From positions 64,001 through 128,000 of the forward strand of contig JANJUP010000022.1 in the NCBI GenBank assembly GCA_024710525.1: a DNA stretch of 64,000 bases, read 5' to 3'. This document shows, one piece after another, positions 4,729 to 63,333 of the stretch (position 1 is the first letter of the stretch; every line of letters begins with the position of its first letter). This stretch comes from Candidatus Rifleibacteriota bacterium. Lineage in GTDB: Bacteria; Muiribacteriota; Ozemobacteria; Ozemobacterales; Ozemobacteraceae. Under the pieces are notes generated by a model, which saw nothing but the letters and a program-made list of their open reading frames with translations, was not told where the DNA came from and did not search any database. Both the position numbers and the translations under genes were made by a program.

Positions 4729-6003
4729 ATGTTTAGAAATATCATGCTGATCACTGCTGTGATGCTTCTGTCTCTTTCTGTTGCCGCCTTCGCTGAATTC
4801 CCAGAGCCTTACCGTGACCCGAATGCCGCTCTGCGCTACCTGATGGCAATGGGCCGTATGCCGCAGCTTACCGAAGATGAGGTGAAACTGCTGACCGATA
4901 TCAGTAGCGCAGAGGCATTTTCGGCATTGCCTGACTCGTTGAAGCGCAAAGTGGCTGAAGCCGGTTTCCAGAACATCTTTAACCAGCTTAAGGCGGCAGC
5001 CGCCTGCACAGAATGCAGTTTTGTGCCAGACAGCAAGTTCGAACCCCAGGATCTCATTCCCCCATACCGGGCGCTTCGCACTTTCGCCAGGTATGTGAAT
5101 GCCGGTGCCTGGCAGGTCATTTCCGGGGGAGACCACGAAAAGGGCGCACAATTGCTGGTATACGTGTTCAAATTTGGTGCCGATTCTGAAAAATACCAGC
5201 CGCTGATTGGTTACATGCTTGGTGTCGGTATCAGATACATTGCCCTGAATTCGATGAAAAATGTTCTTGCTGGCAATTACAAGGTAGAAGCGAAGAAAAT
5301 CATCACTGATTATCTCAAAGCCTTGCCGCGGCCAGCTTTTAACGCCAGAGACAGCCTGGTCTGGGAAAGAATTTATTTTGTTAAAACACTTGATATGCTT
5401 GCCAGCAGCACAGAAGGGGTTGTCGAACTGCTGAAGTCTGTCAGTGATGAGACAAAGCCGGTGGGTGAACAGTCGCTCAGCTGTGTTCCTTATCAGAGAA
5501 TTCTTTTGGGTGCCGTTGAAATGGCGCTGATGGATGGTCTGAAGTTTGAACCCGGAAAACCTGCCGCGGAAATAATTGGAGAACTGGTTAAGAAGCAGTA
5601 TCTGAAAGCGGCACCGGTTTGCCCTGACAAGGGTGAATACAAGATCGAATTCATCAAAGAAGACGATTTTAAAGTCAGCTGCAGCTGTGGTGCCGACCCC
5701 GAAAAATCTGTAGAGAAAAAGGAAGAGGTCAAACCGGCTATAAACCCTGAACTTGAAGCCAAAGCCAAAGAATACCTCTCTTCGGGCAGGCTTGCCAAAG
5801 ATGTTAAAGAAATTCATGAGTATTTCGACAAAGTCATGGCCTGCGATCCGCTCGAATCAGGCCTTGTCGAGAAGCTGAAAACGATGAAAAATGATTATGA
5901 AGGCCGTGACAACATTCTTATCAAGGCAATTCTGCCGGACTTCTCCAAAGTATACGAAAAGCAGTTCAGCCTTCAGGAAGCCATCGATGGTTTGATCAGG
6001 TAA
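4729..6003 (+). CDS. Secreted hypothetical protein
   Basis: AGGAG RBS then ATG at 4729; signal peptide MFRNIMLITAVMLLSLSVAAFA. The antisense ORF 4702..5817 is F-rich, low complexity, and judged spurious. Confidence 0.6.
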   Translation: MFRNIMLITAVMLLSLSVAAFAEFPEPYRDPNAALRYLMAMGRMPQLTEDEVKLLTDISSAEAFSALPDSLKRKVAEAGFQNIFNQLKAAAACTECSFVPDSKFEPQDLIPPYRALRTFARYVNAGAWQVISGGDHEKGAQLLVYVFKFGADSEKYQPLIGYMLGVGIRYIALNSMKNVLAGNYKVEAKKIITDYLKALPRPAFNARDSLVWERIYFVKTLDMLASSTEGVVELLKSVSDETKPVGEQSLSCVPYQRILLGAVEMALMDGLKFEPGKPAAEIIGELVKKQYLKAAPVCPDKGEYKIEFIKEDDFKVSCSCGADPEKSVEKKEEVKPAINPELEAKAKEYLSSGRLAKDVKEIHEYFDKVMACDPLESGLVEKLKTMKNDYEGRDNILIKAILPDFSKVYEKQFSLQEAIDGLIR

Positions 6004-6100
6004 AACAACTGATTTCGGCGTGATAACGCTCTGGAGCGAGAAAGCAGGGCGGGCGTTGAAAAGCACGCGGGCAGATAGATTCTGAAATGTCGCTTATAAA

Positions 6101-6131
6101 AAGACACCGGTTGAGTTCCGGTGTCTTTTTT
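6101..6131. terminator. Bidirectional rho-independent terminator between convergent genes
   Basis: Stem agacaccgg / ccggtgtct with loop ttgagtt, followed by ttttt. An A-run on the other side. Confidence 0.6.
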
Positions 6132-6157
6132 CATCTACGGCGTATTCGGTCGCATTC

Positions 6158-8077
6158 TCAGGTGCCGGAAAGAATCTTTCTGAAGAAGATCGCCTCTTTT
6201 TCGAGAGAATCGACGAGGTTGGCTTTCTGCCTGAATCCATGCGCTTCGGTGGGGTATTCGTAATATTCGTGCCGGATGTGTTTGCTCGCGAGAATTTCGG
6301 CCATTTCGCGTGAATTCTCGGGCGGCACGACCTTGTCTTCTGAACCCTGGAAGATAATCATCGGACTTTTGAGGTTAACGAGATGATTGATCGGCGACCG
6401 ATCTTCGAAAATGTGGCGATGCGTGCTCATGGGCCCGCCGAGAAGTCCCTCAAGGTAACGCGATTCGAATTTGTGGGTCAGATTCTGCAGGGTGACGAGA
6501 TTGCCGATGCCGAAATAACTGGCGCCGGTGGCAAACATCTCAGGAAACATCGTAAGCAGTCGTTGTACCGTATAGCCGCCGGCACTGCCGCCAGAAACCA
6601 CAGCTTTGTCACCGATCATGCGCTTTTCGCGCAGGTATTGCAGACCGTCTTTGACGTCGCTGATCTCAAGAACTCCCCATTCGCCAAGCAGTGCGTCACG
6701 ATAGGCCCTGCCAAAACCGGTTGAACCGCGATAGTTAACGTCGAAAATCGCATAGCCCTGGCTGGTCCAGAAGACATGCTCGCGGCTGAAACCGGCTCGT
6801 GCCAGGCTGGTCGGGCCGCCGTGCACGAGAACCCTTACCGGCGGGAGCTCCCCTTCGGGAGTTTTGTAATTGCTGTTTTTCGGGGGGTAGAAGTAACCGT
6901 GGCATAACTGGCCATCACTGGTTGGAAAGCTGATTTTTTCGGGGCTGCTGATGTCTGCAGCCGAAATATGGCATTCTGATGTGTGCCGTAGAATTTCGAG
7001 ACTGGCATTTTTCTTTATCAGGGCCAGCTGAGTTGGCCTGTCAGCGGGGGTTCCGGTCAGGGCTAGATTTTCGCCACATACGACTGGCTTCGATATCGAC
7101 AGAAACGGCGTCGGCAGTTCGGTTAAACTGCCGCTTTCAGCGTCAACCCAGGCCAGACCAGGCATTCCGTCGTTGAATGTCAGGGCAAGAATCCTGTCTG
7201 CAACGTGCAGAATATAGGCAATCTCATGCCCGGCCGCTGTTATGCGCTTTGTAGAGCCATTGTGCCAGGTGTAAATGTTGAAAAAATTATCGGTCGAATT
7301 CTGCCCGGCCCCTTTTCGGTCGATGCTGTAGCGTATTTCGCCGTTACTGTTGAAGGAAAAGTCGCTTATCGCTTCACTGTCTGAGCCGGCAATTCTGCAC
7401 AGGGCCTTCTGGTTCACTTCGCCGTCGGCAAAGGGAGAGCAACAGAGAACCGTTGAATCCCAGGGCATATAGGGGTGATTCCATTGCAGCCAGGCGATAT
7501 TTTTGCCGTCCGGCGAAAAAAACGGCTGTTTGTAAAAATCGGCACCGCACACCAGAATTTTGGGCTCCTGAATGCCAGGTTTTTGCAGGTCCAGAAGGCA
7601 GAGAGCGTTTTCTGGCTCATTGTGCCCGCCTTCAAGCTCAAAAGCTGCAACCAGCCAGCGGCCATCAGCAGACACGGCTGGCTGCATGAACTTCATCATC
7701 CGGCCGTCGGCGGCCTTTTCGGGGGTAATGGGGGCCGGAGTTTCGCTTTTACCGAAATCAAAGGCATAAAGGCGCTGATCAGAGAAGTTGGCGAATATAA
7801 CCCGGGTTTCAGTCGTGACGTAAGGCATGCCGCCGTATTCCATGACCCTGGTTCTCGCTGAAAAAGGCGCGGGCAGCAGTTCTTTGATTGTGCCGTCGGG
7901 AGTGCGCAGCATGATGACGCAGCGACCTTTCTCTTCGGGGCGCATTTCAACCCAGAACAGCCTGCCGGCCGCATCGCCGGAGAGAAATGAAAAATTCACG
8001 GTTGCCTGAAAGACTTCTTCGGCGCTTATTGCCGGTTTCCAGGTGAGATATGACGCTGTGACTGGTGCGCTGTGCAT
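6158..8077 (-). CDS. S9 family serine peptidase (prolyl oligopeptidase / acylaminoacyl-peptidase type), beta-propeller N-domain, cytoplasmic
   Basis: AAGGAGA RBS then ATG at 8077 (MHSAPVTAS...), 20 nt after the radical SAM stop. Nucleophile motif VVSGGSAGGYTVQ (GxSxGG). C-terminal Asp (QGSEDKVV) and His (TEAHGF) consistent with the S9 triad. No signal peptide. Confidence 0.8.
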   Translation of the reverse strand: MHSAPVTASYLTWKPAISAEEVFQATVNFSFLSGDAAGRLFWVEMRPEEKGRCVIMLRTPDGTIKELLPAPFSARTRVMEYGGMPYVTTETRVIFANFSDQRLYAFDFGKSETPAPITPEKAADGRMMKFMQPAVSADGRWLVAAFELEGGHNEPENALCLLDLQKPGIQEPKILVCGADFYKQPFFSPDGKNIAWLQWNHPYMPWDSTVLCCSPFADGEVNQKALCRIAGSDSEAISDFSFNSNGEIRYSIDRKGAGQNSTDNFFNIYTWHNGSTKRITAAGHEIAYILHVADRILALTFNDGMPGLAWVDAESGSLTELPTPFLSISKPVVCGENLALTGTPADRPTQLALIKKNASLEILRHTSECHISAADISSPEKISFPTSDGQLCHGYFYPPKNSNYKTPEGELPPVRVLVHGGPTSLARAGFSREHVFWTSQGYAIFDVNYRGSTGFGRAYRDALLGEWGVLEISDVKDGLQYLREKRMIGDKAVVSGGSAGGYTVQRLLTMFPEMFATGASYFGIGNLVTLQNLTHKFESRYLEGLLGGPMSTHRHIFEDRSPINHLVNLKSPMIIFQGSEDKVVPPENSREMAEILASKHIRHEYYEYPTEAHGFRQKANLVDSLEKEAIFFRKILSGT

Positions 8078-56904: not shown

Positions 56905-56973
56905 ATATCCACTGCATCCCGCAATCCACGGCTTGTCAGATCAAAATAAGATCATCAGCTTCACACGTTTTTG

Positions 56974-57002
56974 TTGTCTATAAGTCTAAACATATCTATA
57001 TT
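56974..57002 (+). promoter_or_regulatory. Sigma-70-like promoter (TTGTCT-17-TATATT), paralogous to the one at 44425-44453
   Basis: TTGTCT 56974-56979, TATATT 56997-57002. Shared flanking sequence with the serpin promoter. Confidence 0.55.
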
Positions 57003-57097
57003 ACCAGCTGAACAGCAATTTTTCGAGACTTGTAAGCATGATCCGCTTGTAGCAGGAATCAAATGTCCCGCGAGTAATAAAAACAGGAATTTAAACA

Positions 57098-57478
57098 ATG
57101 GAATATATCTGTAGAATTTGCAACCAGCCCAGACCAGAGTCGGCCTTTACTGAAAAAAGCCATTCTTTGCACACTTGCAAAAAATGTAATGTTTTACCCA
57201 ATCAGAGAACTGAAGAGCGTGATCAATTAGATGAAATTTTTAAAATTTTCATGCAGACGCGCATCTCACAGAAAGACACAGTGAGACTTAAGACCTTATG
57301 CACCAGCAAATATCCCAGGGTTGCTACACATGCGACTCTGGTTTTTGAAGTTTCCCAGCTCAGGCCTTACAAAAAAGGAAGATTTGCTTTTCTGGAACAG
57401 AAATACCCCGAGCTCGCAAAAAGAATTGAAGACGCCGGATTTTTTTACCCTCAATACATCAAGACAAACAGCAATTAG
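57098..57478 (+). CDS. Small zinc-ribbon-containing hypothetical protein
   Basis: CRICN...CKKC (two CxxC pairs). Downstream of the conserved promoter. Confidence 0.45.
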   Translation: MEYICRICNQPRPESAFTEKSHSLHTCKKCNVLPNQRTEERDQLDEIFKIFMQTRISQKDTVRLKTLCTSKYPRVATHATLVFEVSQLRPYKKGRFAFLEQKYPELAKRIEDAGFFYPQYIKTNSN

Positions 57479-57565
57479 AAATCTGGGGGAAAACGCTCTG
57501 CGCTGCGTTTTACTGCACGCTTAAGTGCCCTGCTTCCAACCCGATGCAATAGCGCCGGATCAGAA

Positions 57566-58333
57566 TCAGGCATTAGGCTCTGAATCAGGCTCGCTGGCAT
57601 CAGCATCATGCAATTGTGATTTCTGATGAATATAGGAAAAGTATAAATGCCGCCCAGTGATAAATGCGGCTGATAGCTCGATTAAAACAAGGGTTCGAAT
57701 GGACGGTTGTTTGGGAAGTAAGCTCCAGGACAAAAACAGGATAAGGCTGAACCATGCTCCCATGTATGCCGGGTTGCTTTTCTCTTCTTGTTCAGCGAAT
57801 CCTGTCGAACAGACTCCCGTTGTTATTGACCCGGCAATCAGGAAAAACTCTACTGCATTCAAGAAATTCCGGGAAAACATATAAGCACTGAGAAGACAGG
57901 CGACAATTAAAAACACTGCTGCAAGACCGTTTAAATAGCCGGGCGCTTTCTTTAACTTTATGGAAGCAATTACGCAAAGCCATACGCCAGTTACCGTAAA
58001 TAAAAAAGACTCATTCGAGGCGCTTGAAAGCGCAAATCCTGCCATGCAGATCAGAATGCCGGCCGGGCCAGGATCATGAGTTCTCCGTTCCGGATCTGAA
58101 AGTCGCAATAAGCTGAAGTAAACGATTGTTGCCAGTGCCATGACCAATGGAACCGGCCCCCAGTCCAGAAAGTCCGGGCGCCATTCCACTATCGGGAATT
58201 CCAGCAACCACCAGGAACCAATGCCGCCACCGGGTTCAATGGTATAGCGAAATGTTGAAGCCAGCCAGAAAATTCCCAGCTGCATTGGCCACGAAAACAG
58301 TTTCAAAGCCTGGTTTGTCATCTCTTTTTTCAT
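57566..58333 (-). CDS. Polytopic membrane protein of unknown function
   Basis: About 6 predicted TM helices. Start uncertain (ATG 58333 or 58360). Confidence 0.4.
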   Translation of the reverse strand: MKKEMTNQALKLFSWPMQLGIFWLASTFRYTIEPGGGIGSWWLLEFPIVEWRPDFLDWGPVPLVMALATIVYFSLLRLSDPERRTHDPGPAGILICMAGFALSSASNESFLFTVTGVWLCVIASIKLKKAPGYLNGLAAVFLIVACLLSAYMFSRNFLNAVEFFLIAGSITTGVCSTGFAEQEEKSNPAYMGAWFSLILFLSWSLLPKQPSIRTLVLIELSAAFITGRHLYFSYIHQKSQLHDADASEPDSEPNA

Positions 58334-58390
58334 CCCCGTAATGTTGCTGCCCGGGGCCACGTTAAAATCTTCCTTTGGTGAACTGATCGC

Positions 58391-59014
58391 TTACCATTTT
58401 TGCAACTTTGTCCAGGCATAAAGCGCATTGCCCGGGCAGTCTGTTTGCGCCAGATCCCGATGGCAGCAGACATTTTCCGGAACAAGAGAATATTCTGCCA
58501 GCTTGTTTTTGATGATTTTTTTCAGCGCATGCCGGGCCTGTGGACAGGGTAAATGCTTGTCGTAAGTGCCCAGAAAACAAATCATCAGGTAGCCGTTGGT
58601 ATCATATCTGGTTCCAGAATCACCGAGATACGATGAGTTGCGACCTTCATATATTTTTCCGGAGGGAGCAATCAGGTAATGATAAGCAATATCTCCCCAT
58701 TTTTTGTCAGTCATATGAAAGCTCTGAATGTTTCGAAGAATCATGGCTTCATCCTTTTCAACAGGGGCTCTTCCCGCTGTATGATGAATGACAATACCCT
58801 TGATTTTATCCTGAACAGACATTCGATCTGTTGCTGCTGGAACACCTTGCCAGACCTCACGGGCGGCAATGGGCAGTGACAAACCTTCGGATGGCTTCTG
58901 AGTAAGCGACTGGGATCTGGCTGCGGTTGTGAATGTCAGCAAAATCACCAGAGCAACTGTGGCTTTCAGCCAGCCCGGGAAGGTTTTGAGATCATAGTGT
59001 CGATTCATATTCAA
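58391..59014 (-). CDS. Secreted N-acetylmuramoyl-L-alanine amidase (amidase_2 / PGRP domain)
   Basis: GIVIHHTAGRAP...DIAYHYLIAPSGKIYEGR...CHRDLAQTDCPG are amidase_2/PGRP zinc-amidase signatures. Signal peptide. Confidence 0.75.
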   Translation of the reverse strand: MNMNRHYDLKTFPGWLKATVALVILLTFTTAARSQSLTQKPSEGLSLPIAAREVWQGVPAATDRMSVQDKIKGIVIHHTAGRAPVEKDEAMILRNIQSFHMTDKKWGDIAYHYLIAPSGKIYEGRNSSYLGDSGTRYDTNGYLMICFLGTYDKHLPCPQARHALKKIIKNKLAEYSLVPENVCCHRDLAQTDCPGNALYAWTKLQKW

Positions 59015-59400
59015 TCTGAATCTCCATTATTTAGCATTGCGGCAGGATTTAATGCGACTCTCTTGCATGTTCATTATCAGCTGCCGGTACACATATTGTT
59101 ATCATCAGAGCATCTTTCTTGTCACTCTTGTTAAAGTTGCCGATGAACACGAATGATACAAGAATTCCTCAAAAAAAATCTGCCGAAAACCTTGCTAAAG
59201 CACAAAATCCCCGTCACGGACGAGGATTTGCGCAGTGGAGGCGGCCCAAACAGGAACATATCCACGTCCTGCTACATGGTTTCTCTAATTATTTGCACTT
59301 ATCGCAATGATTCTGGTTCAGATTTCAAAGTTGAATTTCCTCCAGAATCAAACTTATAATCAATTCCAAGTGAAAAAATTGATGAGACAGGTATTGAAAA

Positions 59401-60015
59401 ATGAGGATTTTTTTCCTGATGTTTGTGTTTCTGTGCCCTGTTATTGTTCTTGCGCAGGATTCCAAAGAGCTTATGGGCAAGTATGACGAGGCCTTCTATG
59501 CCGGCAATTATGAGCAGGAACTGTCACTGGTAGAACAATTGATTGCAATGGACTCTCAAAATTGTCTCTTTTTCAGGGAAAAGGCAAAAATGCAGGCAAT
59601 GACAGGGAACAAGGGTGCTTTTGCCGCAACATTGAATCATATCAAACAAACATTTGACAGGGTAAACGCAGAAACCGCAATAAAGCACATACATGAGTGG
59701 GAAAAGCTGTCTGAAGATTTTAAAGTTCTCAGCCGGTCATATTTGCCAGAGCCGATTGTGTTGAAAATTTCATCTCGAGATTCGGCAGATTTTCTGGTTG
59801 CCAAAGCATCTCAACAGCCCAATCCAATTGCCCCGGCTGCAAATCAGAAAATCCCAATTTGCTACATCAGCGAATACGGAAAAAAGTATCATGCAAAAGG
59901 TGAATGCCCTGCAGTTACACGCGGAAAGCTTGTTCCTGCTTTTGACCTGGATCATATCAGGAAGAAAACGGAAGGTCCTTGTGAAAACTGCTGGAAAAAT
60001 AAAAACCTGTTCTAA
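59401..60015 (+). CDS. Secreted hypothetical protein (TPR-like helical), Cys-containing C-terminus
   Basis: Signal peptide MRIFFLMFVFLCPVIVLA. Confidence 0.45.
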   Translation: MRIFFLMFVFLCPVIVLAQDSKELMGKYDEAFYAGNYEQELSLVEQLIAMDSQNCLFFREKAKMQAMTGNKGAFAATLNHIKQTFDRVNAETAIKHIHEWEKLSEDFKVLSRSYLPEPIVLKISSRDSADFLVAKASQQPNPIAPAANQKIPICYISEYGKKYHAKGECPAVTRGKLVPAFDLDHIRKKTEGPCENCWKNKNLF

Positions 60016-60041
60016 AAAACTTCAATTGCTGTAGATGAAAG

Positions 60042-60389
60042 TTAGAAGTTTAAGCGAGATATAATTTTTGTCAGATTTTCCAGAAATAGAGGGATTTTAT
60101 CCTTTATGACAAGAAAGACAATTTCGTCATCTATGACATCGTAGGCATGAACAATAACATTTCTGAAAGATATAATTCTTTGCCAATCTGAGAGTTCATT
60201 CAGGAGTTCTGGATCTATTTTTTTGATCCGGTTCAGAGCTTCTCCCAAAATTTCAAACTGTCTTTCAACAGCCGATTTTACCATCAGATTCTCCTGATAT
60301 TCCTGCAGGCTTATTCCTTCTGAAAATTTAATGATCAAACCGCAGGCCGAAACTGCGTCGTGAAGACAAACTTTTGAATTATGAGTCAT
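60042..60389 (-). CDS. hepT: HepT-like toxin (DUF86 / nucleotidyltransferase substrate-binding family)
   Basis: Conserved RNVIVHAYDVID (Rx4HxY motif). Overlaps the upstream antitoxin gene. Confidence 0.75.
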   Translation of the reverse strand: MTHNSKVCLHDAVSACGLIIKFSEGISLQEYQENLMVKSAVERQFEILGEALNRIKKIDPELLNELSDWQRIISFRNVIVHAYDVIDDEIVFLVIKDKIPLFLENLTKIISRLNF

Positions 60390-60687
60390 AACATTTCTTG
60401 AGCCTGGAATAGATGCTTTCTTTTAAATACGGATTCCTGATTGCTTTGGGCATAACCAGATCGACTTCTCTGTTTAAAAGCTTTTCAAGCTCTTCTTTTA
60501 TGCCAAAATATTTATCAAGCCCGTTTTCAGGAGTTATTAATTCCAGAAGGAAATCAAGATCGCTGCTATCCGGGTTGAACTCTTCGGTAAGAGCACTGCC
60601 AAAAAGCGTCAGGCTCTTAGCTTCGTATTTTTTGCAGATCTTCTCTATTTCTGGCAAAAAAGGTTCTATTTTGAACATCAAAATCAC
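60379..60687 (-). CDS. mntA: MntA-like minimal nucleotidyltransferase (antitoxin partner of HepT)
   Basis: LFGSALTEEFNPDSSDLDFLLE matches the GSx9-13DxD nucleotidyltransferase motif. Gene overlap with hepT. Confidence 0.75.
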   Translation of the reverse strand: MILMFKIEPFLPEIEKICKKYEAKSLTLFGSALTEEFNPDSSDLDFLLELITPENGLDKYFGIKEELEKLLNREVDLVMPKAIRNPYLKESIYSRLKKCYDS

Positions 60688-60702
60688 TCCGAAAAGTGGC
60701 GG

Positions 60703-60748
60703 TCAAAACAAAACCTCGGCCACCTCTTTAAAAAGCGGACGAGGTTTT
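60703..60748 (-). terminator. Rho-independent terminator of ssrA
   Basis: 10-bp perfect stem caaaacctcg / cgaggttttg with a U-run on the minus strand, immediately 3' of the tmRNA. Confidence 0.6.
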
Positions 60749-60754
60749 GTTCAG

Positions 60755-61114
60755 TGGAGGCGGCGGGAATCGAACCCGCGTCCGAAAAGGCTCACAGACA
60801 CCGTCTACCATTATGTCCTGCGTTTAATTGTTTAAGACTTTCGTAACCCACAGGCAGGTCTCTACTCATCCGATCCGTCTGGAAAATCTCGACTTGCTAC
60901 CCCAGTGGCCCGGTATCAAGCCCAGCCGGTTTTGTCTACGGTCGTCTCAGTGCTTACCGGCGGAATCAGCTGAGGGACCGTCACAGCAAATTAGGCTGCG
61001 AGTGCCAGTTCTTCGTTGGCAGTTAAGTTTTGATCGATTTTATAACGAGGCCCTTCGATCAACCTCGAATGGCAGGTGGATGCTCACGCTCCCCGTCGAA
61101 ACCAGGTCGCCCCC
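60755..61114 (-). ncRNA. ssrA: tmRNA (ssrA); tag reading frame encodes ANEELALAA, stop at 60991-60993
   Basis: 5' end GGGGGCGACCTGGTTTCGACGGGG (tRNA-like acceptor / tmRNA 5' consensus). 3' end GGACGCGGGTTCGATTCCCGCCGCCTCCA (T-arm and acceptor). Internal ORF ending ...GCAGCC TAA = LALAA stop. Confidence 0.85.
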
Positions 61115-61294: not shown

Positions 61295-63061
61295 TCATTC
61301 CGGACGCAGAAGCCCGATAACCTCGGTATCTTTCAAATTATCATTCGCGAGCGCAAAATCAAGGGCGGTTTTGCCGTGCTCCTTGTCGGCAAAATCAATT
61401 CTGGCGCCGGCAGCGACAAGAATCTTGATTGTTTCCGGGCTGACACTCATTTCGGCCGCTGCCATGAGCGCCGAGAAACCATATTTATCGCAGATGTTTA
61501 CATCGGCGCCGGCTGCAATAAGAGCCTTTATCGCCTCAGGGGCCGAAAATCTGGCTGCGAAAAACAACGGCGTCCTGCCCAGGTCGTCAGTTGAATTTAC
61601 GTCGGCGCCCCTTGTCAGGAAAAGTTTGACGACTTCCGGGTCCCTGTTACTGGCTGCCCTAAGAAGCAGTTCGGCTTCAGGCAGTGCTTTGCCGGCAGTT
61701 TTTTCTGTTTCGGCAAGCAGAAACTTTACGACCTCTGAGTTATTGTATTGCGTTGCATAAAGCAGCGCTGTGGTGCCATTTCTGCTGACAGCGTCGATTC
61801 TGGCCCCTGATTTGATGAGGAATTTTACCATTTCAGGGTTTGGGTTGCCGATGGCTGCTTCCATCAAAGCTGTTATGCCATCTCTGTCAGGCATATTTAC
61901 ATCGATGCCAAGGTGCACTATTCTCCTGGCCAGATTCAGCCCGTCTTTGGCAGCCACTGCCACCAGCCAGGCTTCATACAGAAGCGGGTCTTTGCTTGTC
62001 AGCTTTGCGCCATGCCGTAAAAGCAGATCGATCAGACTGGCACTCCTGGGTTCTTTATAGGTGTCGCCGTTCGCGGCACTGCGAATAGCCATATCCAGAG
62101 CCCTGACATGATTCGCGGCGCCTGCATTCAGAGAAGCCCCGGCTTTCAGCAGTATTGTAACAATGTTTTCGTTGCCCTTAACCCCACATGCCCAGATCAG
62201 CGCTGTAGAACCCTTGTTGTCGCGGGCATTAACTTTAGCGCCATGCCTGATAAGGGCCTTCACCAGAATTTCATTGGCAGGTTCAACCACCGCATGCATC
62301 AGCGGTGTCATGCCATTTTCGTCTCTGCTGTTTACCCTGGCTCCGAGCTTGATCAAAGTTTCGGCAACTTCGCGGTTTTTGTTGTAATAAATCGCGCTGG
62401 AAAGGGCCGTGCGCCCCTTTGCATCGACCACTGCCAGATCGGCGCCGGCTGCTGCAAGCATCGCAACGATACGCGGGTCTTGGTTGTGGGAAGCGGCAAA
62501 GAGCAGGGGAGTTGTTCCGGTGCTGGCCTTATCGTTGACGCCCAGACCCTGGCGCAGCAGGAAGGCGACAACCTCAGGGTTTCGGGCATTCGCGGCGGCG
62601 CTGTGCAGCAGAGTGAATCCCCGTTCGTCAGTAAAATCCCTGCTGTTATACAGTTCAAGCGCTGTCTTGAACATTTTCATGCTTTTGTTGCCGGTTGCCG
62701 CTTTGAGAACTTCGAGATCGATGTTGAAACCCTCTGAAGCAAGAAATCTCAGGGTGGTTTCATCGTCACGGAAAACCGTAAAGGCGCTCATGACATTTCT
62801 TTCTGTTTCGGCATCAAGCTTCGCACCTGCGTCGATAAGGGCTTTGATAATCGTCCGGTCGCAACCGGTAAGAATGGCGGTCGAGAGCAGACTGCTGCCA
62901 TCTTCGACCGGTTTGTTGACATCGGCGCCTTCCCGGATTGCTCGCGTCAGCTTCAATAAAGCACCTGGCTGCCGGTTGCTGATGATTTCCTCAAGATTTT
63001 CAGCAAAAACAGCTGAATTAAATGAAAATAACAGAGCAAACGGAATAAGTTTTCTGAGCAT
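61295..63061 (-). CDS. Secreted ankyrin-repeat protein (>12 ANK repeats)
   Basis: AAGGTG RBS then ATG at 63061; signal peptide MLRKLIPFALLFSFNSAVFA. Repeated G.TPL..A.......V..LL..GA[DK][VL]N ANK consensus throughout. Confidence 0.85.
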   Translation of the reverse strand: MLRKLIPFALLFSFNSAVFAENLEEIISNRQPGALLKLTRAIREGADVNKPVEDGSSLLSTAILTGCDRTIIKALIDAGAKLDAETERNVMSAFTVFRDDETTLRFLASEGFNIDLEVLKAATGNKSMKMFKTALELYNSRDFTDERGFTLLHSAAANARNPEVVAFLLRQGLGVNDKASTGTTPLLFAASHNQDPRIVAMLAAAGADLAVVDAKGRTALSSAIYYNKNREVAETLIKLGARVNSRDENGMTPLMHAVVEPANEILVKALIRHGAKVNARDNKGSTALIWACGVKGNENIVTILLKAGASLNAGAANHVRALDMAIRSAANGDTYKEPRSASLIDLLLRHGAKLTSKDPLLYEAWLVAVAAKDGLNLARRIVHLGIDVNMPDRDGITALMEAAIGNPNPEMVKFLIKSGARIDAVSRNGTTALLYATQYNNSEVVKFLLAETEKTAGKALPEAELLLRAASNRDPEVVKLFLTRGADVNSTDDLGRTPLFFAARFSAPEAIKALIAAGADVNICDKYGFSALMAAAEMSVSPETIKILVAAGARIDFADKEHGKTALDFALANDNLKDTEVIGLLRPE

Positions 63062-63333
63062 TGAATTCACCTTCAGACCAGAATTTTTTTTTGAATCAGA
63101 ATACAGTATAAGAAGAAAAGGCGCTGACAGCAATTACAGCAAACCATAGTCGCCATCCGCGCGTCGGCGAGAATCATGCTCTGAACGTTAAGACGGCATT
63201 CCAGTGCTTTTTCCAGTGGATTAGAGTCAAGTCTATTCAAATGCTGACGCGTGATGTATAGTTTCCACATCTTTTGTCTGAAACCAGATTTTTAAATCAG
63301 AGTGGTCGGTTGCCCGGCCAGGGAGATATTGCC

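Follow-up and report, generated by a model that had tools for sequence, protein, structure and literature searches.

Two copies of the tmRNA 3′ end probably bound a small integrase-less integrative element in Candidatus Rifleibacterium

Why should the last nucleotides of a transfer-messenger RNA (tmRNA) gene recur, in the same orientation, some 1.5 kb downstream of that gene? The question is raised by a 64-kb window (the whole stretch of DNA analysed here, positions 64,001 to 128,000 of contig JANJUP010000022.1 of a Candidatus Rifleibacteriota bacterium), in which a 29-nt direct repeat encloses a 1.5-kb islet next to the tmRNA gene, ssrA. The islet carries a predicted MntA/HepT toxin-antitoxin pair and a 204-amino-acid (aa) orphan open-reading frame (ORF). 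We consider it probable that a small integrative element, lacking an integrase, entered the 3′ end of the tmRNA gene in Candidatus Rifleibacterium and that the two copies of the repeat mark its ends. The copies are read as attachment (att) type scars because the arrangement has the geometry of an island in a tRNA gene (tDNA): the tmRNA gene is intact, a displaced 3′ fragment of it lies downstream, and the orientation of both is the same.

A preliminary description of the window, made from its letters alone, had reported this repeat; its existence, its identity (26 of 29 positions) and its right copy at 60736–60764 all held, whereas the left copy lies at 59217–59245, on the minus strand like its partner, and not at 59207–59235, 10 nt away. 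Searching the window for the 29-mer with up to three mismatches returned these two sites only, no match of any kind occurred in dinucleotide shuffles of the window (0/100), and a binomial estimate gives ~5 × 10−8 matches expected by chance. Ungapped identity drops at once on either side of the 29-mer, so that within the window the repeat does not belong to a longer duplication. As had been described, the right copy consists of the last 10 nt of the tmRNA, which ends at 60755, and of its terminator flank, here 19 nt of the 5′ arm of a hairpin. Both copies in fact lie within complete terminator hairpins, in which the 5′ arm is the same and the 3′ arms are different but compensating. The two copies have an exact 13-mer, GCCGCCTCCACTG, in common, and all three mismatches sit in the terminator-arm portion and vary with the type of arm (T1 or T2, see Table 1), which would put the crossover within this 13-mer or immediately ahead of it. 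The G+C content is 35–43% in the islet against 45–52% in the flanks. The tmRNA gene, the only one in the window, encodes the tag peptide ANEELALAA (ARAGORN) and matches Rfam model RF00023 over its full length (model positions 1–374, scoring 166.5 bits where the gathering threshold is 47). Direct reading of the sequence gives an acceptor stem GGGGGCG/CGCCUCC, including a G3:U pair, with the discriminator A at 60755; CCA is not encoded and CUG comes next.

The locus was compared with ~40 related Candidatus Rifleibacterium contigs, labelled with L numbers, which were collected through the amidase that flanks the islet, the DNA core of the repeat, and homologues of MntA, of the 204-aa protein and of the amidase. 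The amidase scan of genome contigs gave L003–L006, the core scan of metagenome contigs L007 and L008, and the amidase homologues L024–L032. The flanking amidase is 97% identical in amino acids to that of a metagenome-assembled genome (MAG, JANJUX010000019.1), the tmRNA is 90% identical to that of Ca. Rifleibacterium amylolyticum (L009), with the same tag, and two independent Logan assemblies (L001 and L002) have the window arrangement at 100% identity over 4.8 kb, both copies of the repeat included. Every occurrence of the tmRNA-end heptamer GCCTCCA was catalogued with its context. The tmRNA-end core recurs across the related contigs. In tmRNA sense the constant part is (C)CGCCTCCA, and across L003–L035 it joins five left arms (U0 to U4) to seven right arms (T1 to T7) in 12 observed combinations: U0+T2, U0+T3, U0+T6, U1+T1, U1+T2, U1+T3, U1+T5, U2+T1, U2+T2, U3+T3, U3+T4 and U4+T7. 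Most right arms open with a terminator hairpin, the 5′ arm of which is the same in T1 to T4.

In this catalogue the ends of the islet are U0+T2 at the proximal side, a junction also present in L021–L023, and U1+T1 at the distal side, and the expected attP of the element is therefore U1+core+T2. That junction occurs inside tandem arrays, in L003 beside a near-identical islet, and in L004 and L035 beside related islets. In L007 the T1 arm follows a 23-nt tmRNA fragment. Such free reassortment of unrelated arms within a few nucleotides would be expected from site-specific recombination at the 3′ end of the tmRNA. The earlier proposal that the copies are attL/attR-type scars at the ssrA 3′ end thus gained support from the varied cargo between like repeats, the several arms at one core and the tandem hybrid junctions. 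Two other identities were tried for parts of these junctions and rejected. U1 has GGACG.GG.T in common with the tmRNA T-arm, yet it lacks a T-arm fold and is conserved as an element end. The hairpins gave no IntI or attC evidence that would make them integron attC sites, and are ordinary terminators with T-runs after them.

The comparison with L003 bears on the age of the insertion. Over the chromosomal flank (56965–59245) the window and L003 differ at 77 of 2281 nt (3.4%, or 96.6% identity), and over the islet (59246–60764) at a single position of 1519, namely 59519 (99.93% identity, Fisher p = 2 × 10−16 for flank versus islet); the L003 contig comes from a short-read MAG, and this contrast of 0.07% against 3.4% divergence could reflect a strain-switch chimera. 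The last difference in the flank is at 59243 and the U1 arm starts at 59246, the break in divergence therefore falls at the predicted crossover, the boundary between U1 and the core. The outer scar appears to be old and the islet young in at least one of these two genomes, because the distal core has changed in relatives while the islet is near-identical. Most simply, strains would have exchanged the 1.5-kb unit recently via recombination at the core, either by itself or within a tandem composite from which the partner was lost afterwards. Cis-mobilizable elements and accretion are described as behaving in this way (PMC5704250).

Table 1. Coordinates of the islet, its borders and its genes in the window, with the left (U) and right (T) arms seen at the tmRNA-end core
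Feature	Position	Strand	Details
tmRNA (ssrA), intact	60755–61114	−	ARAGORN 60754–61114; Rfam RF00023 60752–61114
Proximal repeat copy, attL-like	60736–60764	−	10 nt of tmRNA end (60755–60764, GCCGCCTCCA) and 19 nt of the 5′ arm of the element-borne T2 terminator
T2 terminator hairpin, islet-borne, now the ssrA terminator	60707–60751	−	Inverted repeat; minimum free energy (MFE) −27.8 kcal/mol, z = −3.9; followed by TTTTGTTTTG; as right arm, followed by MntA-HepT
mntA, predicted MNT nucleotidyltransferase antitoxin	60379–60687	−	PF01909 2.4 × 10−14, PF18765 1.1 × 10−9 (Pfam)
hepT, predicted HEPN RNase toxin	60042–60389	−	PF01934 1.2 × 10−18 (Pfam); 11-nt overlap with the end of mntA
204-aa orphan ORF, secreted-type	59401–60015	+	Signal-peptide-like N-terminus, TPR-like helical domain (residues 21–112), conserved Cys/His-rich C-terminus
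U1 arm, element distal end	59246–59269	−	GGACGTGGATATGTTCCTGTTTGG in tmRNA sense; conserved beside the core in several different cassettes; ~10 nt tmRNA-like sequence kept; L003 (twice), L004, L005, L016 (twice), L035
Distal repeat copy, attR-like	59217–59245	−	Displaced 10-nt tmRNA 3′ end and 5′ arm of the T1 terminator
T1 hairpin, presumed original ssrA terminator, outer islet border	59205–59229	−	Terminator scan; MFE −27.7 kcal/mol; as right arm, runs on into the amidase flank and is presumably native
Left arm U0			True tmRNA body
Left arm U2			..ATG(G)AT + GGGTTCGATTCCCGCC, 23 nt of tmRNA kept; L007, L008
Left arm U3			..GACGAGAAAATAGCTCA.T..GGA, ~9 nt tmRNA-like sequence kept; L007, L016–L020
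Left arm U4			Degenerate whole T-arm, ~29 nt tmRNA-like sequence kept; L009–L012, L033, L034
Right arm T3			Followed by a Y1/IS200-like gene (L005, L007), an 82-aa ORF and HicB (L010), or a HigA-like gene (L035)
Right arm T4			Followed by VapBC
Right arm T5			Followed by a 253-aa gene
Right arm T6			Followed by a GIY-YIG gene
Right arm T7			Followed by MntA-HepT in R. amylolyticum

What lies between the repeats is modular. The T2-MntA-HepT part (~60080–60751) is common to L004, L008, L009, L010 and L021, with similarity ending at ~60080, while the 204-aa gene and the U1 arm (59234–60000) match L016, where they are paired with VapBC. Because the similarity to the MntA relatives stops at ~60080 and that to L016 covers 59234–60000, the islet is a mosaic of two modules that have had different histories and that join in the short spacer where the hepT and 204-aa genes converge. 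The preliminary description had taken it for the decayed remnant of an island retained by its addiction module, a view that the comparison supported only in part: the islet is a two-module mosaic, and its single difference from L003 points to recent movement as a unit. It looks recently mobile, in the manner of a cis-mobilizable element (CIME), rather than merely decayed, and is probably still mobilizable, or was so recently.

MntA-HepT is the most persistent resident of the ssrA locus across the genus, in changing company. In L004 it stands with a HigB/HigA-peptidase pair in place of the 204-aa gene, in R. amylolyticum a ~0.4-kb GIY-YIG cassette lies between ssrA and MntA-HepT, and in L010 a cassette of the 82-aa ORF and HicB takes that position. 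L021 and L035 jointly tile an array of ~14 kb, without an integrase, that contains, among others, MntA-HepT, HigBA and a type I restriction-modification system. L016 encodes VapBC with a 198-aa homologue of the 204-aa protein, followed by a second cassette with a 253-aa gene; this gene is also present in L005 and L024–L026, together with a Y1 transposase-like gene and an MntA fragment of 123 nt. The Y1 gene (207 aa, IS200/RAYT-like; 2284–3000 in L005, 3673–3897 in L007, and also in L024–L026) stands after a tmRNA-end core and T3 arm of its own, like a separate cassette.

Several of these arrays hold further genes of note. In L010 (1036–10347) MntA is followed by a 430-aa fusion of HepT with a DncV-like nucleotidyltransferase, and then by a uracil-DNA glycosylase, a HARE-HTH protein, an HTH/peptidase M78 pair, a thymidylate-kinase/HMUDK_hel protein and a radical SAM enzyme; the block looks like a defence or phage-like one within the ssrA hotspot. 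An element of L016 that ends with the U3 arm encodes (5651–6610) a 319-aa reverse transcriptase (RVT_1), which may be that of a retron or a defence system, and a pEK499_p136-domain protein. An IS21-type pair of an rve transposase and an AAA helper lies just upstream of a truncated MntA in L036 (302–2350) and L037 (4–2010), insertions that add transposition to the processes reshaping the array.

The arrangement can be accounted for by the following series of events. The first two can be traced in the sequence itself: the att site of the element would have carried a copy of the ~10-nt tmRNA end together with its own terminator hairpin, T2, and recombination at the start of GCCGCCTCCA would have rebuilt the tmRNA, which would then be terminated by element DNA; the original 3′ end with its native T1 terminator would have been displaced 1.5 kb downstream, with the U1 arm before them. 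The recombinase would most likely be a tyrosine integrase acting on the 3′ strand of the acceptor stem and encoded outside the islet, either acting in trans or acting in cis from a neighbour in a tandem array, which would make the islet equivalent to a CIME. At such a hotspot the regenerated att site may have received further elements, and these events, along with excision and the deletion of DNA lying between att copies, may have shuffled the small cassettes, so that repeated rounds would have left the present mosaic of a T2-MntA-HepT module and a module of the 204-aa gene and U1. A deletion between the two U1 junctions of an array like that of L016, for example, would yield the distal end seen in the window. 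The predicted type VII pair MntA/HepT would probably keep the islet in place through post-segregational killing, or else have a role in defence.

A number of observations weigh against this account. The tmRNA accounts for only 10 nt of the repeat, a shorter stretch than most tDNA islands have. The empty site, which would be U0+T1 (tmRNA...GCCGCCTCCA-CTGCGCAAATCCTCGTCCGTGACGGGG followed by the amidase), was found in no relative in the amidase, core and amidase-homologue scans, and more distant amidase orthologues (66% identity) are not beside ssrA. A free attP on a phage, plasmid or circle was not found either in scans of viral contigs with the core and with the U1, U2 and U3 arms, which all returned 0. 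There was no tyrosine integrase in the islet, among the tested ORFs of the window (those of 180 aa or more were all screened with a crude HxLRH motif, and ten unannotated candidates with Pfam) or in the arrays of the ~40 related contigs, and the only recombinases near any array are the large serine recombinases of an upstream element in L004. Pfam annotation of the genes of the related loci found, as recombinases, these enzymes (L004), a weak Y1 transposase and the IS21-type transposase (L036, L037). The distal core is decaying in L003, where it has six changes, and more so in L005 and L016, which indicates that there is no selection on the distal copy there. All comparison sequences, moreover, are metagenome assemblies, which are often broken or possibly strain-switched at such repeats. 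The comparison with relatives and the integrase search that had been proposed thus had a mixed outcome: content polymorphism is plentiful among the related loci, but the empty site and the cognate integrase were not recovered. Integrase-bearing elements may be unassembled, since contigs frequently end at or near the junctions (e.g. L001 and L003). A tyrosine integrase in L039 was considered as a candidate and set aside; it is part of an unrelated type I restriction-modification island, with no tmRNA gene nearby, that carries an MntA of 65% identity.

Insertion at the tmRNA gene has well-described parallels. Islands that restore their target tDNA, displaced fragments that serve as markers of their ends, tandem arrays, and an enrichment of the tmRNA gene as a target have all been reported (PMC4383910). 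The islet resembles such Islander-type tmRNA islands in that element DNA rebuilds the gene, the far end carries the displaced 3′ fragment in direct orientation, and tandem arrays occur (PMC4383910); as in Williams' ‘traffic at the tmRNA gene’, the types of element differ in the position of the crossover within the 3′ part of ssrA. It differs from them in being only 1.5 kb long and without an integrase gene, the presence of which is an Islander filter criterion, in duplicating only ~10 nt of the tmRNA, with similarity running 19 nt into the terminator arm, and in a crossover at the extreme 3′ acceptor strand rather than at Islander's positions equivalent to the T-stem or anticodon. Structurally, the islet would resemble a tDNA island in all but the integrase. 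CIMEs and their accretion have also been defined (PMC5704250), and like the elements related to ICESt1 of Streptococcus the islet lacks genes for integration and transfer and keeps attL and attR; the tandem U1+core+T2 junctions of L003, L004 and L035 resemble accretion, with an incoming element beside a resident one (PMC5704250). In contrast to those elements, no parent of the islet was found among integrative and conjugative or integrative and mobilizable elements, its mobilization is suggested by the discontinuity in divergence alone, its host is of an uncultured Riflebacteria lineage, and it is inserted at ssrA and not at fda or a tRNA gene. On its gene content and ends the islet would fit the definition of a CIME.

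A first alternative concerns the site more than the islet. The ssrA 3′ end might be the anchor of an integron-like array of integrase-less cassettes of 0.4–2.6 kb, and so a dedicated capture platform rather than a graveyard, in which each cassette bears a tmRNA-end mimic and a terminator and mostly encodes toxin-antitoxin or defence functions, and in which one or more recombinases encoded elsewhere would capture and shuffle the cassettes and exchange them between strains. We regard this as unlikely, if worth stating. With the toxin-antitoxin arrays of chromosomal integrons the locus has in common a one-sided array on a fixed anchor, small cassettes of one or two genes, many of them toxin-antitoxin pairs, and a short, conserved recombination sequence with an adjacent hairpin that delimits each cassette. 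It differs in that no IntI, attI or attC was seen and that the cassettes are delimited by copies of the tmRNA 3′ end and terminators, and the likeness is one of resemblance only.

A second possibility is that no dedicated integrase is involved, the DNA downstream of ssrA being reshuffled by homologous or illegitimate recombination between duplicated copies of the tmRNA end and terminator. Failure to find a cognate integrase in any searched locus would agree with this, as would a 5′ terminator arm (AAA.C(C)TCGTCC) that is similar in all right arms and could serve as microhomology, and a breakpoint between the two islet modules (60000–60080) that is not at an att-like site. However, U1, U2 and U3 are unrelated to each other and to the tmRNA body and yet end at the same few tmRNA-end nucleotides, the exact block in common is 7–13 nt, too short for efficient RecA recombination, and the drop in divergence from L003 stops exactly at the core, with no fading into the flank. 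We therefore hold recombination of this kind to be improbable, and an integrative element remains our preferred reading.

The enzyme might also be of another class, either a large serine recombinase like that of L004 or a Y1 HUH transposase of IS200/RAYT type (L005, L007), which would recognise the hairpins, the tmRNA-like part serving only to restore the gene. Serine integrases exchange strands at a 2-bp core and normally neither need nor leave a long direct repeat, and IS200/IS605-type elements do not duplicate their target. The sites studied here share a 13-nt exact and a 29-nt near-exact repeat rather than a 2-bp crossover, the islet is without a serine recombinase, neither enzyme is encoded in the window, and the Y1 match is weak (E = 2.7 × 10−5) and restricted to one type of cassette. 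These points make another class of enzyme quite improbable in our judgement, even though every right arm does contain a stable hairpin, the 207-aa Y1_Tnp-like gene always comes directly after the T3 hairpin, and recombinase genes lie upstream of the U1+T2 junction in L004 (89–3446), where one encodes a complete 555-aa protein (resolvase, recombinase and Zn-ribbon domains) and a second lacks the N-terminus. A chance match or an assembly artefact between ordinary chromosomal genes, for which one might cite the mere 10 nt of tmRNA in the repeat and the tendency of terminator arms to look alike, has next to no credibility given the empty shuffles and minute binomial expectation, the identical arrangement in two other assemblies, and the same junction logic across dozens of independent contigs.

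The content of the islet had been described beforehand as a secreted-type ORF, HepT and MntA without an integrase, which the Pfam and NCBIfam scans bore out: between the copies the ORF list and both databases gave MntA, HepT and the 204-aa orphan only, with no recombinase gene. HepT/MntA is among the most abundant toxin-antitoxin families and is defined by the motifs RX4HXY and GSX10DXD (PMC7641770). As in the described type VII systems, mntA precedes and overlaps hepT, the antitoxin upstream and MNT (PF01909) adjoining HEPN (PF01934), HepT has the RX4HXY motif (PMC7641770) as RNVIVHAY at residue 76, and MntA has a GS...DXD motif, GSALTEEFNPDSSDLD. The latter reads GS-X11-DLD and is one residue longer than the consensus X10 spacing, and both proteins fall under the NCBIfam equivalog cut-off of 60 bits (HepT_toxin 43.6 bits, MntA_antitoxin 40 bits). 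The earlier naming of the pair holds on its Pfam domains and catalytic motifs, which support a predicted type VII toxin-antitoxin pair. MntA homologues in Rifleibacterium MAGs, in NCBI records named Ca. Rifleibacterium, are 90–98% identical and 99 aa long, and because of this length the start of mntA is probably the ATG at 60678, which would give 99 aa.

The 204-aa protein matches nothing in Pfam or NCBIfam, also with the threshold relaxed to E ≤ 1, and its homologues form only four clusters among 5.8 billion proteins, at 74–94% identity. Mean column identity in the family is 87%, and because conservation is this high the ORF is a real, lineage-restricted gene. An AlphaFold2 model consists of stacked helical hairpins and is confident for residues 21–112 (predicted local distance difference test 85–97 over residues 21–110); its best PDB fold matches are all TPR domains, none of them below E = 0.04. 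The description of the product as secreted and TPR-like was therefore sustained in part, weakly, by the signal-peptide-like N-terminus and the TPR fold matches, and not by any family match or by an E-value under 0.04, and it is plausible.

Nothing in these results overturns current understanding. They provide a clean and sharply bounded case of such traffic at tmRNA genes, from a candidate phylum that is uncultured and poorly studied, and suggest that a 1.5-kb element without its own recombinase can still have moved recently between strains. While the insertion scar is of a familiar kind, the site appears to be an unusually busy array of small integrase-less cassettes, and the less ordinary aspect is that these are many, very small and largely of toxin-antitoxin or defence type, each with a tmRNA-end mimic and a terminator, and accumulate at one chromosomal hotspot. 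The catalogue of arms fixes the recombination point to a few nucleotides and so provides concrete att sequences with which to find the missing integrase or integrases, which could serve as site-specific tools for a lineage without genetics.

The neighbourhood of the islet is itself variable on the downstream side of ssrA. A 264-aa multi-pass membrane ORF without a Pfam match (57566–58360) is present in the window and in L003 and is not at the same position in L004, L005 and L016, where only ~170 nt separate the amidase from a 126-aa gene; its presence or absence would be a second insertion/deletion polymorphism near the ssrA hotspot. Only the two ends of the amidase are left in L016 (710–1000) and the gene is absent in L035 (5131–5313), deletions therefore also reach beyond the outermost att scar into the flank. 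The region of the 264-aa ORF (57882–57906) and the tmRNA body (60932–60956) share an inverted match of 25 nt with 84% complementarity, which may be due to chance. On the other side, directly upstream of ssrA, lies a gene for a 612-aa secreted ankyrin-repeat protein (61295–63133); an ankyrin gene is also found upstream of ssrA in R. amylolyticum, with 67% nucleotide identity over 287 nt, and the upstream side therefore appears syntenic and the downstream side hypervariable. In L004 a 553-aa ankyrin protein comes after the two large serine recombinase genes.

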